A stretch of DNA of 16,738 bases from a virus. Shown in pieces: positions 1 through 16,738 of the stretch. Below the pieces are notes generated by a model. The model was given only the letters and a program-made list of their open reading frames with translations. It was not told the origin of the DNA and made no database searches. Made by a program: the position numbers and the translations under genes. The stretch is taken from the IMG/VR virus record IMGVR_UViG_3300045988_116319. One strand, 5' to 3'. How positions within the stretch are numbered: position 1 is the stretch's first letter; each line of letters begins with the position of its first letter.

Positions 1-76
1 AAATATAAATATAGTCCGTCCCACGCGGACATTTTCCCAATTTTGTCCGCGTACGGCGGACAGCACAATGCACAAC

Positions 77-111
77 AAAAGCGGTGTCTTTCCCACGCGG
101 ACACCGCTTTT
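77..111 (-). terminator. ITR hairpin, candidate outward-facing intrinsic terminator (mirror copy at 16628-16662 on +)
   Basis: A perfect 12-bp stem aaaagcggtgtc (77-88) / gacaccgctttt (100-111) encloses an 11-nt loop tttcccacgcg. On the minus strand the stem is followed by ttttgttgtg, so it could stop late transcripts running out of the tail-fibre gene towards the left end. On the plus strand only 4 T follow. Confidence 0.45.
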
Positions 112-192
112 GCAAACTATTACATTGCATTTATTCACTTTTCAATACTTTTTCAAACACATAAACCCGAAATTTTTATGCATTTTTCCAAC

Positions 193-221
193 TTGACAAA
201 TACACTTTACCCGACTAAAGT
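193..221 (+). promoter_or_regulatory. Sigma-A-like promoter inside the ITR, pointing inward (mirror copy 16518-16546 on minus strand)
   Basis: TTGACA (193-198), a 17-nt spacer, then TAAAGT (216-221). The right-end copy faces the minus-strand gene array. The left-end copy would run antisense into the tail-fibre gene. Confidence 0.4.
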
Positions 222-472
222 GTTAGTCACGCCTAATTGTCTATACAATTCATCAAATATTCACGGTTTCCGACCGATTCACACACAATTCTTCCGTAAT
301 ACTTACTCATTTTTCCCGGAAAGTGGACAAAACCGCCCGTTTGTCCGCGGGTCGCGGACACATCGGAGACGGGGACTCACTTTAGTCTGCTAAAGTGTCC
401 GCGGGAGACGGACACGGCGCGGCGTGAATATGTGTGTAACTTTTGTTACTTAGTTATTTCATTCATATTTAG

Positions 473-4536: not shown

Positions 4537-6114
4537 TTAATTATTGGAAAGACCATAGTTTCCAACATCGTCCGTGTGCCAGAACGTAACGCCGCGGTTA
4601 AACATAGCCTGCAAAAAGTTAATATCATCGGTAACACATGAACCGTGTAAACCGCAATTTACAGTTTTGACAAAATTCCAGTTTGACCGCCCTGTGATAT
4701 TAGGGACTTTGATTTTGTGTGTAGCATATCCATACATGGTAAAATAATCGTCGATCGTTTTCGCCATCTGAGCGGTTACACTCATCACATGGCAGTAAAC
4801 TTGGCTGCCGAACAATGCAGCGGCAACATAACTTCCTGATGAATTTCCTTTTGCTGTTGGCGGTATCAGATCATGGCTTTCTTTCTGCGCATTGATATTT
4901 TCATTCAGCAAAAAAGTGCTAGTTGCCGCGTTAAAAATACTTTCTGCGCCTGCGGATAAATTACCACTTAATGCTCCGACCAATCCGCCCGTGAGATTTC
5001 CAATCTGAGAAATAGCATTCTGCTTTTTAGAATAGTCCCATAAAGGCGCGGTCTGCGCGAGAAAAGCTTGATAGCTGTCATTTGTCCACGCGCACTGTGG
5101 AAAATTGTTGAGGACAAAACCATAAGGGGATCTTTGTCCACCTGTATTTTTGTATTCGCGTGGGGCAATGAAAATTGATGGTATATTAAGCTGTACCCCG
5201 TATACTTGCATGGTTAATGCTCCATTTTTACCGTATTCGAAATTATAGGTATGCTGGACTCCCGAACCGTCATTTACCAAACAATAACAATACGGATATT
5301 GGAACAATTTATTGTTTTTTGGTTTATATCCATCTATAGTAACAGGTTGAATTGTTTTTTGTACATATACGCTAGTATCTGTCTTGAAACACGCTTCTGG
5401 AGCTTGATATACATTTACGATAGCATCTCCGTTTCCGCTTTTAACATACTTTTGGATAACAGTAATTAAATCGGTATAGGATTGTTTTCGCGTAAATGTC
5501 AAACCGGACAGAATACCTTGTATGGACACTGGAATAATATTAGTGCCATTTTCATCTGCGCTCGCAGATAAACAATATTGCATTTTTCCAAGATAAAGTA
5601 ACTGTTGTTCTGCCGGGTTATCCACGTACTCTCCCGTTTCAAGATTTTCCGGCACAAGATTAATTCCGACAAGATCAGCTTTTTTGTCAATGTGTTCTCT
5701 TTCCACATAGCACGGCTGTAAAACCACATCATAAAAACTGTTCTGGAATCTGTCGGGTTCGAAATAAATTTTGAAACTTCTGTCACTCAACCATTCTACG
5801 CGCGTTACAAACCCGAAATACCACTCTTCCGTATACGGCTTATTCTGGAAAGCAATGTAGTTACATTTCAGAAATTCACTCTCATTTCCTTTCCCTTTAT
5901 ATGTCAATTCTCCCCATCTCACGGGCGCGGACTGCTTGAAAATATGGATTGCCTTTTCCCTTACATGAGCAAGGCAGCCGTCTTTTCCGTTTTCGTAGTA
6001 TCGTACATGCTCATAATCGTTTCCCCACTCAATCCCACTTGCTAAAATTACCTCCGTCTGCGGGGAAACCGCCGCCACATTTTCTTGCGGCGGCATCGGA
6101 ATGAAATTATCCAT
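4537..6114 (-). CDS. Tail knob / distal tube protein (phi29 gp9-like), 525 aa
   Basis: The N-terminal IAFQNKPYTEEWYFGFVTRVEW parallels phi29 gp9 IMFQNADYGNKWFYAFVTELEF. The C-terminus YFTMYGYATHKIKVPNITGRSNWNFVKT...FNRGVTFWHTDDVGNY parallels gp9 [28 protein letters not shown]...FDNGITLWHTDNIGNY (recalled from memory). Lies between the capsid and portal genes as in phi29. Confidence 0.88.
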   Translation of the reverse strand: MDNFIPMPPQENVAAVSPQTEVILASGIEWGNDYEHVRYYENGKDGCLAHVREKAIHIFKQSAPVRWGELTYKGKGNESEFLKCNYIAFQNKPYTEEWYFGFVTRVEWLSDRSFKIYFEPDRFQNSFYDVVLQPCYVEREHIDKKADLVGINLVPENLETGEYVDNPAEQQLLYLGKMQYCLSASADENGTNIIPVSIQGILSGLTFTRKQSYTDLITVIQKYVKSGNGDAIVNVYQAPEACFKTDTSVYVQKTIQPVTIDGYKPKNNKLFQYPYCYCLVNDGSGVQHTYNFEYGKNGALTMQVYGVQLNIPSIFIAPREYKNTGGQRSPYGFVLNNFPQCAWTNDSYQAFLAQTAPLWDYSKKQNAISQIGNLTGGLVGALSGNLSAGAESIFNAATSTFLLNENINAQKESHDLIPPTAKGNSSGSYVAAALFGSQVYCHVMSVTAQMAKTIDDYFTMYGYATHKIKVPNITGRSNWNFVKTVNCGLHGSCVTDDINFLQAMFNRGVTFWHTDDVGNYGLSNN

Positions 6115-11329: not shown

Positions 11330-11401
11330 GTCCTCCTTTCTATCGTTTTCTAAAACCCCGCTCCGCGTCCCTGCAATTTCCCGCCAGTCTCTCTGCAGGT
11401 A

Positions 11402-11434
11402 ATCTCACGTTTATCGCACGATGATCGCACGTTT
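11402..11434. repeat. Three tandem 11-bp direct repeats (consensus ATCGCACGTTT)
   Basis: The units are atctcacgttt (11402-11412), atcgcacgatg (11413-11423) and atcgcacgttt (11424-11434). One unit per helical turn, in the non-coding gap upstream of the ATPase gene. Confidence 0.6.
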
Positions 11435-11465
11435 GCTTGCAGTTGGACGGCAGATCTTTGCTGGG

Positions 11466-11500
11466 TATAAAAAGAGCTACGCTGGAAAACGTAGCTCTTT
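11466..11500 (-). terminator. Rho-independent terminator ending the replication-gene transcription unit
   Basis: On the minus strand, the stem gagctacg (with loop ttttccag) pairs with cgtagctc and is followed by tttttat. The stem extends to 11 bp with A-U pairs (11471-11481 / 11490-11500). Located 113 nt downstream of the SSB-like gene stop. Confidence 0.75.
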
Positions 11501-11612
11501 CACACGTATGGAGTTTTCAAATACACAAGATATAGTAACAATCAACTACAGGTAACTTATCATACTCATAGGTACATTCCACCATTCGGAGTGCGTATTG
11601 CCGTCCTATGGA

Positions 11613-12376: not shown

Positions 12377-12421
12377 TATTGTTCTCCTTTTCTTATGTGG
12401 TTGTGATTTCTTACAAGTATT

Positions 12422-12450
12422 ATAATAGCACTATTCTAACAAAAAGTCAA
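12422..12450 (-). promoter_or_regulatory. Sigma-A promoter with extended -10
   Basis: On the minus strand: TTGACT (12450-12445), a 17-nt spacer, then TGcTATTAT (-10 at 12427-12422, preceded by TG). A TATAAT hexamer sits 3 nt further downstream. Lies in an AT-rich gap upstream of the 78-aa ORF. Confidence 0.6.
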
Positions 12451-12454
12451 TACT

Positions 12455-12577
12455 TTAAATAAGAAAAAGAAATAAAATATCTAATATGATAAGTAAGATA
12501 GTAAAATCAAATTCTTCTTTATCAATAGCAAAAATAGTTATTAACAATAATAGCATAAAAAATACAAAATATCTCAT
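12455..12577 (-). CDS. Unannotated 40-codon hydrophobic peptide (MRYFVFFMLLLLITIFAIDKEEFDFTILLIILDILFLFLI)
   Basis: Hand-translated from the minus strand and below the ORF-track size cut-off. The SD AGGAGA overlaps the polymerase TAG stop (gaaTAGGAGAcaatATG). Has two hydrophobic segments separated by DKEEFD. Caveat: AT-rich DNA readily yields Phe/Ile/Leu-rich pseudo-ORFs. Confidence 0.35.
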   Translation of the reverse strand: MRYFVFFMLLLLITIFAIDKEEFDFTILLIILDILFLFLI

Positions 12578-12585
12578 ATTGTCTC

Positions 12586-14754
12586 CTATTCTGGTAAAAC
12601 TCCGTCTTGAGAGTTTAACAATACTTCGTAGTATTCATTCGTTACACCTAAAGTATAAGTGGTATCAAGGATTCCAATGTTACTAGCCGTTAAAATTTCT
12701 TCCCCGTTTACTTTGATGTAATGGGGTTTCGAGTTGTTAAAGCAACTGATTGTCCGTCCGACATTTTCCATCCGGCGGCAAAGCCGGAAATTATTACAGC
12801 ATTTTAAGTTTTCCGCGCCAAGTTTCTTATTCATTCCAGCGACCGTAGACGTAAAACGCACGGGATCTTTGCCAGATTGTGTTGCTTTTTCGTCCCATTC
12901 CACGCCGCAGTATTTTTTCGCGCCAAGGGTTTTAAACTGAAAATAGAGGTCATCCATATCCCAAACGCCGAGAATGTAACGGTTCTCTCCAACGTCACAA
13001 AACGCCGGAATGTCGTTTTCGATTGCACGTTTGGCAAGTATTTTGTTTTTAGCTTCAAATTCCGGAATGTGTATATCCGGACGCAGAAATTTGATACTGT
13101 CAGTATCGCAGTACACAACATCCATTCCAACCACGTCAAGCATATCTTGTAACTGTTTTCTTGCGTGAGCAGTAACATAGATTCCCCATTGATAGTGCAA
13201 AAAGCTGTTTTTTCCATCATAGTACGTGTTCAGTGCTTTTTCCGCATCTGCTTTTTCCCGATGCCATTCACCCGTAACAGCATCCATTGCCCATTCGTCT
13301 TGCAACAGATCGGTTACGCACATCCCGAATGTACTGTTTAACTTATTTTTAGACTTCATGTATTCGTACACTTTATCGGGGTTTCCTTTCAACTTGCTCT
13401 TTGCGATAAAAAATGACATCATCGTTTTCCGCATACTATCCGGTAACTTTCCGCGCGCGGCTACGTAGCATTCTGACACGGTAAAGAAATCATAGTCATA
13501 TTGATTTTTTATAATCGACAAGTCAATTTCCGTCATTGCTATTTCACAGCAATTCATAGACAATACGCGTCCATTATCAATCACACAATCTTTCCCGTAC
13601 TTCTGACACTTTGACATCGGGATATAAGGGACGGGGATGTTTTCTTTGATACGCAAGTTGTCAAATTGTACCCGCATAATAACACAGCTGGTAGCACACA
13701 AGTTGTCAAACTGTTCCTGCGTTGTGATCTCAACCGCCCGGAACGCACTCATTGGATAATACTCCGTTGCGATCTGCGCCGGATAACTACTCGAGATATC
13801 CATACTACTCATAACGATCGCAGATTCACCTTTTTTCGCCGTGATCGTGTGACCAGCGTGGATGCGGTTAGCGTGCGTATTACCGCCGCGGAACGCATCT
13901 TTGCAGAGTTGGTATTGTGGTAACGTTAAAGCCAGATCGGCAAATACTCCCGGATAATAACCGCTATCTGCCTGCATGGCGCGGCGAAATTCGCGGCGGA
14001 CGTAGCCAGTAGAGGTAAGGGGGATTTCTGCAAGGTTGTCATCTTTTCGTAAGGCGCGGATGCATTCGCACAAACCGCGAACATCATTGTAGCAATATCC
14101 CTGTTCAACGTCCGTTAAAGGTGTTTTTGGTGTACGTAGTTTTTTATAGTCATACGTATCAACCAGTTTATAGTGGGTTACGCCCTCACTGTTTTCACAA
14201 AATTTTGAAAGACTCATGTTGCTTAAAAAATACGAGCATCGAAACTCAATCCCGTATTTATACGCATAACATTTCATAACTTTATGTGCATCCCGCGCAA
14301 AGATTTCATCTAATTCTATGAAATCTTTCATGAACTGAAATTCATACGACAGATTGTGAACGTAGACTACAGCGCGTTTCGTATCAGAAGTGTTCAAATA
14401 CAAATGTAAACCCTCACAGAAAGTAAGAAATTCATTCCAGTTACGTCCGAAACATACAGTATCTTTCAAACAGAACTGCCAGTGGTACATGAAAGCTTCA
14501 CCTTTTACTACTTTTACCCCTGTTTTGTTATAGCGTTCATAATCGAGTTTTTCCAACGTAGTTGTTTCGATGTCAAACGCCATTTCCACGTCATAATAGA
14601 TGATAGGTTTTTTCTTTCTTCCGCGTTTGCGGCATTCTCGCAACGTCTGGTAATCTGAAAAAGGAAAGTCTACAACGGAATATACTGTTTCACGTGAAAC
14701 ATCTTCGATTCCGTTTATGATAACAGGAACATTTAATTCATACATGATATACAC
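12586..14754 (-). CDS. Family-B, protein-primed DNA polymerase (phi29 gp2-like), 722 aa
   Basis: Exo I is FDIETT, Exo II is HNLSYEFQF and Exo III is YCYNDVRGL. Motif A is MDISSSYPAQ, motif B is KLNSTFGMC and motif C is YCDTDSIKF. The KxY motif is LGAKKYCG. Start is GTG 14754 (tracked) or ATG 14745. Confidence 0.93.
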   Translation of the reverse strand: MYIMYELNVPVIINGIEDVSRETVYSVVDFPFSDYQTLRECRKRGRKKKPIIYYDVEMAFDIETTTLEKLDYERYNKTGVKVVKGEAFMYHWQFCLKDTVCFGRNWNEFLTFCEGLHLYLNTSDTKRAVVYVHNLSYEFQFMKDFIELDEIFARDAHKVMKCYAYKYGIEFRCSYFLSNMSLSKFCENSEGVTHYKLVDTYDYKKLRTPKTPLTDVEQGYCYNDVRGLCECIRALRKDDNLAEIPLTSTGYVRREFRRAMQADSGYYPGVFADLALTLPQYQLCKDAFRGGNTHANRIHAGHTITAKKGESAIVMSSMDISSSYPAQIATEYYPMSAFRAVEITTQEQFDNLCATSCVIMRVQFDNLRIKENIPVPYIPMSKCQKYGKDCVIDNGRVLSMNCCEIAMTEIDLSIIKNQYDYDFFTVSECYVAARGKLPDSMRKTMMSFFIAKSKLKGNPDKVYEYMKSKNKLNSTFGMCVTDLLQDEWAMDAVTGEWHREKADAEKALNTYYDGKNSFLHYQWGIYVTAHARKQLQDMLDVVGMDVVYCDTDSIKFLRPDIHIPEFEAKNKILAKRAIENDIPAFCDVGENRYILGVWDMDDLYFQFKTLGAKKYCGVEWDEKATQSGKDPVRFTSTVAGMNKKLGAENLKCCNNFRLCRRMENVGRTISCFNNSKPHYIKVNGEEILTASNIGILDTTYTLGVTNEYYEVLLNSQDGVLPE
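14686..14701. promoter_or_regulatory. parS site 2 (perfect 16-bp ParB/Spo0J consensus palindrome)
   Basis: An exact TGTTTCACGTGAAACA within codons 18-23 of the polymerase gene. It encodes VSRET, the same pentapeptide as at site 1 in the long ATPase reading frame. Confidence 0.75.
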
Positions 14755-15346: not shown

Positions 15347-15694
15347 TTAATAATAACACTCTTCGTTTCCCTCTTTTGAGTACAACGGACACAACGTACA
15401 GTTATCGTTCGCAGAACAGATAACGGAATGTTTGATTTCAATGTAATAAGTTATGTAAGCATAACGAGTGCTTGTGGAATTGTTGGATTTTACAGTAAAT
15501 CCAACGCCAAAACGCCCTTTATATGGTTGTGGATGATATACTGCGTTTTTACGGATGTATCCATTTGTCATTGATGAATGATGATATGCATACACTTTAA
15601 ACTCCGCTCCTACTTTTCTTGTCACATAAAAAGGAAGTTCAGCAACGCTATTCTTCATTTTAATAAATTCTTCATAATTCATTTTTTGATTCAT
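15347..15694 (-). CDS. Hypothetical early protein with C-terminal Cys cluster (115 aa from ATG 15694; track gives 129 aa from TTG 15736)
   Basis: AGAGGA (15710-15705) lies 10 nt upstream of ATG 15694. There is no SD before TTG 15736. The C-terminal CSANDNCTLCPLYSKEGNEEC suggests a small zinc-binding module. Confidence 0.55.
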   Translation of the reverse strand: MNQKMNYEEFIKMKNSVAELPFYVTRKVGAEFKVYAYHHSSMTNGYIRKNAVYHPQPYKGRFGVGFTVKSNNSTSTRYAYITYYIEIKHSVICSANDNCTLCPLYSKEGNEECYY

Positions 15695-15987: not shown

Positions 15988-16017
15988 ACAATACCATTTT
16001 TTCTAGAAAAAGTCAAT
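15988..16017 (-). promoter_or_regulatory. Candidate early promoter
   Basis: On the minus strand: TTGACT (16017-16012), an 18-nt spacer, then TATTGT (15993-15988), about 50 nt upstream of the first early ORF. The spacer and upstream flank carry TTCTAGAA palindromes (16001-16008, 16024-16031, 16035-16042). Confidence 0.45.
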
Positions 16018-16049
16018 GCTTTTTTCTAGAAATTTTCTAGAACATATCA

Positions 16050-16738
16050 TTACACACATATTCACGCCGCGCCGTGTCCGTCTCCCGGAAAGCTACAGCC
16101 TCCGACTGTCATCGGCAGACAACCGCGGAGCGTTCGCGCAGCGGATGCAAAGCGCCGTGTCCGTCTCCCGGAAAGCTACATCCTCCAGCTGTCATCGGCA
16201 GACAACCGCGGAGCGTTCGCGGAACGGATGCAAAGCGCCGTGTCCTCACCCGCGGAGAGCTACAGCCTCCAGCTGTCATCGACAGACAACCGCGGAGCGG
16301 ATGCGGAGCGGATGCAAAGCGCCGTGTCCGTCACCCGCGGACACTTTAGCAGACTAAAGTGAGTCCCCGTCTCCGATGTGTCCGCGACCCGCGGACAAAC
16401 GGGCGGTTTTGTCCACTTTCCGGGAAAAATGAGTAAGTATTACGGAAGAATTGTGTGTGAATCGGTCGGAAACCGTGAATATTTGATGAATTGTATAGAC
16501 AATTAGGCGTGACTAACACTTTAGTCGGGTAAAGTGTATTTGTCAAGTTGGAAAAATGCATAAAAATTTCGGGTTTATGTGTTTGAAAAAGTATTGAAAA
16601 GTGAATAAATGCAATGTAATAGTTTGCAAAAGCGGTGTCCGCGTGGGAAAGACACCGCTTTTGTTGTGCATTGTGCTGTCCGCCGTACGCGGACAAAATT
16701 GGGAAAATGTCCGCGTGGGACGGACTATATTTATATTT
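16050..16738. repeat. Right inverted terminal repeat (ITR-R), 689 bp including a 250-bp tandem-repeat expansion
   Basis: 16319-16738 is the reverse complement of 1-420 (one mismatch). 16050-16087 is the reverse complement of 402-439. The intervening sequence is the tandem array, which is absent from ITR-L. Confidence 0.95.
16069..16341. repeat. Tandem direct repeats, 3 full units (83, 83, 84 bp) plus a partial fourth
   Basis: Units start with gcgccgtgtcc at 16069, 16152, 16235 and 16319. Units 1 and 2 are near-identical. Unit 3 diverges at both ends (gtcctcacccgcggagagc, and ggagcggatgcggagcggatgc). The left ITR has only the single junction copy. Confidence 0.9.

Follow-up and report, generated by a model that had tools for sequence, protein, structure and literature searches.

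What purpose do the repeated G+C-rich motifs at the two ends of a linear phage genome serve? We addressed this question for the inverted terminal repeats (ITRs) of the IMG/VR virus record IMGVR_UViG_3300045988_116319. The window, by which we mean the whole stretch of 16,738 bp that was analysed, is the complete linear genome of a phi29-like podovirus. A preliminary description of its sequence had noted that the heptamer GTCCGCG, or its complement CGCGGAC, recurs in the ITRs as hairpin-forming inverted pairs, and had proposed an array of binding sites for a protein acting at the replication origins or termini. We show here that the repeated unit is a larger dyad, and that these sites are confined to the termini and under sequence-specific purifying selection, with position and phasing conserved across a family-level group of phages. 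From these comparisons we favour, with some reserve, the view that the array is probably bound by a dimeric sequence-specific protein on double-stranded DNA, which would serve to organise the origins of protein-primed replication and may act on an ITR promoter as well.

The repeated unit is a 19-bp dyad

The heptamers lie exactly where they had been placed, with GTCCGCG at 45, 343 and 397 and CGCGGAC at 24, 96 and 353. The count of nine pentamer cores (GTCCG/CGGAC) in the ITR is also correct, as is the 13-bp direct repeat TCCCACGCGGACA at 19 and 91, and the sole extra heptamer outside the ITRs is a CGCGGAC at 5926. Six heptamers were observed against 0.07 expected, and four copies of GTCCG-N7-CGGAC against 0.001 expected; neither count was reached in any of 5000 dinucleotide-preserving shuffles of the ITR. 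The ITR has a higher G+C and CpG content than the genome body, but local G+C richness is not the cause of the enrichment, because no shuffle reaches the observed counts. The enrichment of the heptamer is thus real, but the heptamer is merely part of the true unit, a 19-bp dyad TGTCCG-N7-CGGACA with a constant 7-nt spacer, of which the repeat finder identified five copies per ITR. When up to two mismatches were allowed, this pattern had ten matches in the whole window against 0.41 expected. All ten are in the ITRs, and the 15.6-kb genome body contains none.

The five sites of the left ITR are arranged as follows. The terminal segment AAATATAAATAT (1-12) starts with AAA; its sequence varies between lineages and it always spans the 12 nt before the first site. 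Site 1, AGTCCG-TCCCACG-CGGACA (13-31), has the same offset in all lineages. It is separated from site 2, TGTCCG-CGTACGG-CGGACA (44-62), by the linker TTTTCCCAATTT (32-43), which has a conserved T-T-C-C-C(C) core. Site 2 was retrieved by the repeat finder, by the pattern scan and in relatives. Site 3, TGTCTT-TCCCACG-CGGACA (85-103), has one degenerate half and is enclosed in a longer palindrome (76-112, mirrored at 16627-16663) with a perfect 13-bp stem, CAAAAGCGGTGTC / GACACCGCTTTTG, flanked by an A-run and a T-run. This palindrome resembles a terminator, given its perfect stem and its A4/T4 flanks, but the terminator scan made no call (the loop has 11 nt and the T-run only four T). Site 4, TGTCCGCG-GGT-CGCGGACA (342-360), is supported by the repeat finder, the pattern scan and the alignment of the window's lineage. 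Finally, site 5, TGTCCG-CGGGAGA-CGGACA (396-414), is at the inner ITR boundary and is duplicated at +24 nt in several relatives.

The left ITR (1-420) is the reverse complement of the right ITR (16319-16738) with a single mismatch, at 406, and the mirrored sites of the right arm are at 16325-16343 (site 5'), 16379-16397 (4'), 16636-16654 (3'), 16677-16695 (2') and 16708-16726 (1'). Interrupted homology extends to 449 on the left. The interruption is a tandem array of 3.2 units of 83 bp (16069-16337), inserted in the right arm only, beyond which the homology resumes (left 411-449). The earlier figure of 439 bp for the ITR is therefore only approximate. It had also been stated that each tandem unit carries a related gtgtccgtc core. 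This holds for two of the three units, which carry GTGTCCGTC, whereas the third match to the nonamer is site 5 of the ITR itself. The half-site TGTCCG begins two units (16075 and 16158) and the third is degenerate; the units contain single half-sites only. The inner ITR boundary is an expansion hotspot. A strain otherwise 99.8% identical has an extra 83-bp unit (L407, 398-790), and other relatives have at this place different G+C-rich repeats or the additional copies of site 5.

Conservation of the sites and of their layout

We scanned IMG/VR for pairs of dyads separated by 6-36 nt. The scan recovered the window's own lineage (lineage A) and at least eight others, represented by linear contigs of 13-14 kb with ITRs. 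The polymerases of these other lineages are 31-54% identical to that of the window and 32-80% to one another. Their structural genes are undetectable or fragmentary by tblastn, except in the closest of them (L260), and their ITRs are otherwise unrelated in sequence to those of the window. The layout is common to all: 12 nt, a dyad at 13, a linker of 12-13 nt, a dyad at 44 or 45 and usually more dyads at about 78, 111 and 144. Exactly 12 nt precede the first dyad in the longest independent contig ends of at least eight lineages. The linker between sites 1 and 2 contains TTCCCC in 24 of the 25 non-redundant ends of the other lineages, and successive sites are 31-34 bp apart, approximately three helical turns, in 51 of 66 intervals. 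The consensus of 66 sites is TGTCCGY-N5-RCGGACA, with essentially invariant outer TGT and ACA. The sites are also localised at the ends: ten complete genomes have 64 sites within 500 nt of an end and a single one elsewhere in 130 kb. Independent contigs with these sites number more than 100 and come from several samples.

The motif is not strictly required in the wider group, because Clostridium phage HM2, the nearest cultured relative (polymerase identity 46%), shows only degenerate forms (TGTGCA-N7-AGGACA and TGTCTT-N7-AATACA) where the sites would be expected. Canonical sites are present in its sister lineage, L260. In the GenBank relatives (Amedibacillus AD70P3, the human fecal MT83xxxx records and Salmonella astrithr), the ends are missing or have other motifs.

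We then analysed the sites within lineage A, using an alignment of 31 complete or nearly complete ITR ends that are 84-90% identical. The 48 half-site columns of sites 1, 2, 4 and 5 are 90% invariant, with a mean entropy of 0.03, and none of 20000 random column sets was as conserved. In contrast, the 28 spacer columns have an entropy of 0.30, no lower than that of the remaining ITR (0.24). The length of the spacer is always 7. The homologous ITRs of related phages thus keep the motif. Together with the layout of the distant lineages, these patterns (invariant half-sites, drifting spacers, constant offset and spacer length, spacing of around three turns) give strong comparative support to the original suggestion of a binding-site array at the origins or termini.

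Some contig ends deserve caution. Contigs L032, L253 and L263 start with a Nextera adapter (..AGATGTGTATAAGAGACAG) fused straight to the ITR, and L063 and L075 have 12-24 extra nt ahead of the AAA terminus. These are assembly artefacts, relevant when defining the true ends. Similar patterns also occur outside this group of phages. Eight unrelated phage contigs of approximately 70% G+C (L171, L178, L198, L240, L224, L225, L238 and L241), several of them of about 50-55 kb, have internal arrays in which (T)GTCCGG-N5-CCGGAC(A) is repeated 3-8 times at intervals of 23-36 nt. The array of L178 (4401-4650) is inside an open reading frame (ORF) whose N-terminal part has a weak, sub-threshold match to a TrmB winged helix. 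A scan of 185,579 bacterial and archaeal genomes for the site-linker-site pattern, made in search of the host, returned only unrelated repeats in GC-rich metagenome-assembled genomes (MAGs). In one of these, the Acetobacteraceae MAG CAXSEF01 (L282-L293), a dispersed repeat fits the pattern on ten or more contigs and probably represents a repetitive extragenic palindrome (REP)-like element unrelated to the phage.

Proposed function of the array

How could such an array work? A dimeric protein would read the two-fold-symmetric sites, TGTCCGY-N5-RCGGACA, on duplex DNA. The outer module, formed by the 12 terminal nt, site 1, the TTCCC(C) linker, site 2 and further sites at intervals of about three turns, would place several dimers on one face of the helix, beside each end capped by the terminal protein (TP). 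The resulting nucleoprotein complex would mark and activate the origins by recruiting or positioning TP and polymerase, by opening the end, or both, and it may also control an inward promoter of the ITR. We infer protein binding, the dimeric stoichiometry and the origin function from the conservation patterns. An origin-organising complex is suggested because the offset of 12 nt from the protein-capped end is fixed, the two ends are identical, the sites are phased and an AT-rich core is adjacent. Roles in replication and in transcription need not exclude each other, by analogy with protein p6 of phi29, which has both.

Several observations weigh against this interpretation. Sites 4 and 5, at 340-414 bp from the end, are rather remote for sites serving the origin alone. 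The polymerase of HM2 is nearer to that of the window than those of most motif-bearing lineages, and yet its sites are degenerate. The first 120 nt of the window (1-120) fold as single-stranded DNA at -32.8 kcal/mol against -12.7 kcal/mol in shuffles (z = -7.6). Promoter-like elements follow the arrays in many lineages, and transcription control could be the main role. Finally, the phage provides no obvious binder. The small early ORFs have no Pfam or PHROG match and no recognisable DNA-binding domain; the one basic candidate among them, a protein of 116 aa with a four-cysteine (Cys4) cluster, has a confident AlphaFold2 (AF2) model (pLDDT 81) with no fold match in the PDB by Foldseek; and neither the 116-aa family nor the 62-aa family extends beyond the window's lineage and its close cousins.

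The sites as possible operators of ITR promoters

An unlikely alternative is that the sites are operators of a transcription factor acting on ITR promoters, with no direct role in replication. Dyads of about 19 bp are typical operators of dimeric regulators, and an inward match to a sigma-70-like promoter, TTGACA-17-TAAAGT (193-221, plus strand), occupies the AT-rich middle of the ITR, with one cluster of sites on either side and both hexamers conserved. A strong inward promoter is also present in HM2, where the ITR has its inner end, and 8 of the 25 ends of the other lineages have a promoter-like element (up to one mismatch) at most 110 nt past the last dyad. However, no such element was found at 15 of the 25 ends and, where present, its distance to the sites varies, whereas the distance of the sites to the physical end is fixed at 12 nt. 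Four relatives have a 10-nt insertion within the promoter spacer of the window's type, the copy of the promoter at the left end would run antisense into a late tail gene, and the real early promoter is outside the ITR and has putative operators of its own.

Some of these elements are worth describing further. The insertion consists of exactly ten A between the -35 and -10 hexamers (L046, L048, L062 and L160); it ruins the promoter spacing yet adds one helical turn between the two dyad clusters. The early promoter (15988-16043, minus strand, TTGACT-17-TGgTATTGT) is strong and is located just inside the right ITR. Three TTCTAGAA palindromes lie around it, including one within its spacer, and this octamer is found nowhere else in the window. 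In 67 of 80 related loci, the early genes are preceded by two to three copies of TTCTAGAA, and these palindromes look like a separate operator set.

The ITR also contains a second dyad family, CACTTTA-N6-TAAAGTG, with two copies per ITR in the window. Copy A, CACTTTA-CCCGAC-TAAAGTG (203-222, mirrored at 16517-16536), was retrieved by the repeat finder, and copy B, CACTTTA-GTCTGC-TAAAGTG (378-397, mirrored at 16342-16361), overlaps site 5 by 2 nt. In other phi29-like lineages (L299, L311-L368), sites of the TAAAGTG type replace those of the TGTCCG type as the end-proximal repeat. Their carriers include a group of 16.4-16.9 kb starting with AAATATCTGGGATCACCG, contigs of 13-14 kb (L331, L338, L354 and L367) and the GenBank record MT836125.

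Hairpins, other end functions and artefacts as alternative explanations

It is quite improbable, but suggested by the palindromic nature of the sites, that they act as single-stranded hairpins or cruciforms, either on the displaced strand or at the 3' end of the template, where they could help re-initiation, form panhandles or be recognised by a structure-specific protein. All sites are complementary to themselves and to each other, which together with the stable fold of the first 120 nt fits this explanation. If pairing were the selected feature, changes in one arm should be compensated in the other. We counted departures from the consensus in the arms of 102 distinct sites. Among the 112 arm positions that depart, only 2 keep complementarity and 110 are uncompensated; the lone exception in a long stem is a double change from G:C to A:T in the stem of site 3 in L007. 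Selection is thus on the sequence and not on the pairing. Many inner sites retain just one good half-site together with the outer ACA. The arm sequence is identical at all sites, in lineages whose polymerases are down to 31% identical, while structure alone would need no such identity. The loop is fixed at 7 nt, although hairpins tolerate variation, and the minimal 6-bp stems are weak, with single sites folding at -5 to -9.5 kcal/mol. The pattern in the arms is what would be expected of a dimeric protein reading the sequence of duplex DNA, and not of a selected stem. Hence, hairpin-forming pairs, which were stressed in the preliminary description, find no support as the selected feature.

The palindromes nevertheless seem to have left traces of pairing. 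Three of the 31 aligned ITRs (the window, L005 and L037) have an 11-nt site-3 loop that is TTTCCCACGCG-like, and the other 28 have its reverse complement (CGCGTGAGAAA-like). The three minority loops each have a different majority variant as their closest match, and the three genomes are not mutual nearest neighbours in the remaining ITR; therefore, at least two independent inversions have occurred. Similarly, the central triplet of site 4 is found as GGA and as TCC among relatives. Both orientations are expected of intrastrand template switching at a hairpin, and the loop inversions imply that the palindromes can pair in vivo. In most lineage-C genomes the spacers of sites 1 and 2 are rich in pyrimidines, but in L206 and L226 they are purine-rich. 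Some site-5 spacers are identical to those of site 2 or site 3. We read all of these changes as probably neutral outcomes of template switching within a strand and of exchanges among sites. Hairpins on displaced strands are thus possible, and would account for the inversions, but as a by-product rather than as the selected feature. This leaves the recognition of duplex DNA by a dimeric protein as our preferred explanation.

That the sites serve another function of the ends, such as packaging, end protection or tethering and segregation, is very doubtful. They are exclusively terminal and identical at both ends, and phi29 uses sites for the host Spo0J (parS) near its genome ends, but nothing specific supports any of these roles, and to our knowledge the motif matches no consensus of parS, of the Noc-binding site (NBS) or of the Spo0A box. 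A chance, compositional or assembly artefact, conceivable since the ITR differs in composition from the body and metagenome assemblers can collapse or copy ITRs, has practically no chance of being the explanation, being refuted by the composition-matched shuffles and by the number of independent contigs and samples.

Candidate binding proteins

Which protein would bind the dyads? The preliminary description had pointed to the small early proteins, the TP candidate and host factors. The second early gene (15347-15694, minus strand) encodes the protein of 116 aa (counted from an ATG), which is basic (pI 9.2), tyrosine-rich and composed of beta-sheets. It is the only basic candidate among the early products and has an invariant C-terminal cluster, Cys-x5-Cys-x2-Cys-x10-Cys. 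These small early proteins are restricted to the window's own lineage and its close cousins, and the dyad motif is not. An early protein of 67-105 aa in another lineage has a similar Cys motif, and hhalign finds no homology between it and the 116-aa protein. We clustered the ORFs around the polymerase in 74 loci and compared their profiles: only the polymerase, the packaging ATPase and the TP candidate are common between lineages. Likewise, when all early-gene clusters were compared with hhalign, only the TP candidates were related, and no shared small protein emerged as a common binder.

The motif does not track similarity in polymerase or TP either: canonical sites are absent from HM2 and L338, whose polymerase and TP are closer to those of the window, and present in far more distant lineages. 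This makes TP or polymerase a less likely specific reader. The tail receptor-binding protein shows similarity to that of the window in 8 of 16 representatives of the TGTCCG type and in none of 8 of the TAAAGTG type, a weak correlation that is not corrected for phylogeny. A host factor is weakly favoured because no small early protein is common to the motif-bearing lineages. Our tentative ranking puts a host factor ahead of a conserved phage protein (TP or polymerase), with non-homologous, lineage-specific early proteins last. Taken together, the patterns are consistent with a binder that does not diverge in step with the phage, a host protein being the simplest case, with lineage-specific analogues or TP as possible substitutes.

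A bolder proposal, which we regard as possible but rather doubtful, is that the 62-bp terminal module (12 nt, dyad, TTCCCC linker, dyad) is the universal core origin of a family-level clade of human-associated phi29-like phages, read by one dimeric factor across lineages, most plausibly a host protein. If this were true, the module would be a bacterial counterpart of the auxiliary origin of adenovirus bound by NFI and Oct-1. Furthermore, the type of end site (TGTCCG or CACTTTA-N6-TAAAGTG) would report on the host factor, and hence on the host, that a phage depends on.

The genome and its relatives

The genome has 17 plausible genes, every one on the minus strand. Genes for the connector, the major capsid protein, the tail knob and the packaging ATPase gp16 all have matches to phi29-type families (Pfam PF05352, PF25622, PF20934 and PF05894), and a lower collar gene was also identified among the structural genes of this type. 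The DNA polymerase (722 aa) belongs to the protein-primed type of family B, with a match to PHROG 1907 (E = 5e-51), and a profile built from nine polymerases has the phi29 polymerase 1XHX as its sole PDB match (E = 2.8e-13). The TP candidate is the ORF of 192 aa just upstream of the polymerase. Its AF2 model is all-helical (pLDDT 71), and it is homologous to the ORFs preceding the polymerase in other lineages and in HM2 (hhalign, 98%), with no match in Pfam, PHROG or, using AF2 and Foldseek, the PDB. The AAA that starts the window and most lineage-A ends provides reiterated terminal nucleotides allowing sliding-back; the ends of some other lineages start with GCG or GGG instead. An ORF of 116 aa with a TTG start lies wholly within the ITR (43-393, plus strand). 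We rejected it as a coding sequence, almost certainly so, because relatives have indels of 10 nt and 1 nt in it.

Neither the genome nor the first 120 bp of its ITR has a megablast or blastn match among GenBank phages, and tblastn with the polymerase gave no match in plasmids. Approximately 160 close relatives are found in IMG/VR (polymerase identity 87-97%), and a near-identical strain is present in another sample of the Joint Genome Institute (JGI). Two contigs recovered with the connector protein have IMG sample numbers of the 7000000xxx series, which we take to be Human Microbiome Project samples. A scan of the whole window with Rfam found no phi29-type packaging RNA (pRNA), although the phi29-type packaging ATPase and connector are present, and no match of the ITR to any RNA family at E <= 1. 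Two non-coding gaps have no assigned function (11330-11612, 283 nt; 12377-12585, 209 nt); a 200-nt interval covering most of the second (12401-12600) has about 20% G+C.

Comparison with known systems

The recognition of protein-primed origins in phages is understood almost only from phi29, which has ITRs of 6 bp and whose p6 lacks sequence specificity. Our search of the literature for the half-sites as a known operator found nothing relevant, and a review of phi29-like phages does not discuss ITR motifs. No account of this motif turned up in the literature accessible to us. If the array has the function we favour, the 19-bp site would be a concrete probe to fish out the binder, and perhaps the hosts of an abundant group of gut phages. 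The layout of the dyads is also a simple signature of complete genome ends in metagenomic contigs, and may be relevant for building minimal protein-primed replicons.

The comparison with phi29 itself is the most immediate. Protein p6 binds in phased multimers near both ends, activates protein-primed initiation and regulates the end-proximal early promoter. The window belongs to a phi29-like phage, and phased multimeric binding near its ends is what we infer here. However, p6 reads DNA bendability with a period of 24 bp, whereas the dyads are sequence-specific and 31-34 bp apart, the ITR of the window has 420 bp instead of 6 bp, and none of its small early ORFs is a p6 homologue according to Pfam and PHROG.

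Other systems share some of these features. At the lambda O-some, four 19-bp dyad iterons stand beside an AT-rich region, and a short phased array of 19-bp two-fold-symmetric iterons adjoining AT-rich DNA is also found here. In contrast to lambda, the window has no gene for an O-like initiator, and its origins would be protein-primed ends instead of an internal origin of the theta type. It is the GTCCGG-N5-CCGGAC arrays within an ORF of the unrelated GC-rich phage contigs that resemble the lambda O gene with its iterons. The two orientations of the palindrome loop recall the flip and flop of parvoviruses such as adeno-associated virus (AAV), but here the palindromes lie inside the ITR rather than at its extremity, the ends presumably carry a protein cap and the two orientations are seen between genomes only. 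Given this internal position, and because selection does not act on their pairing, these are not terminal hairpins of the parvovirus type. Specific proteins also recognise internal sequences of the ITRs or telomeres of other protein-primed linear replicons, such as TRF1 in pGKL and Tap at the telomere palindromes of Streptomyces. The latter act as folded 3' single strands, whereas the pattern of selection here favours recognition of the duplex, and both sequences and hosts are unrelated.

The closest logic is that of adenovirus. In its auxiliary origin, an NFI dyad, TTGGC-N5-GCCAA, and an Oct-1 site stand beside the core origin of pTP and polymerase and are bound by host factors. In both cases the genome is linear and protein-primed, and a dyad for a dimeric protein (putative in our case) lies at a fixed distance behind a short terminal segment; the likeness may extend to a binder provided by the host, since no phage protein tracks the motif. 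The differences are nevertheless clear. The consensus, TGTCCGY-N5-RCGGACA, is neither the NFI site nor the Oct-1 octamer; there are 3-5 phased copies instead of one; the host is a bacterium; and the most conserved block of adenovirus is the core origin at 9-18, whereas in the present group it is the dyads that are conserved, behind 12 variable terminal nt. Judged by these analogies, the dyad array is a member of none of the adenovirus, phi29 p6 or lambda O-some systems. A sequence-specific, fixed and phased array that persists although the polymerases have diverged to about 31% identity would represent another kind of protein-primed phage origin, closer to the logic of adenovirus.

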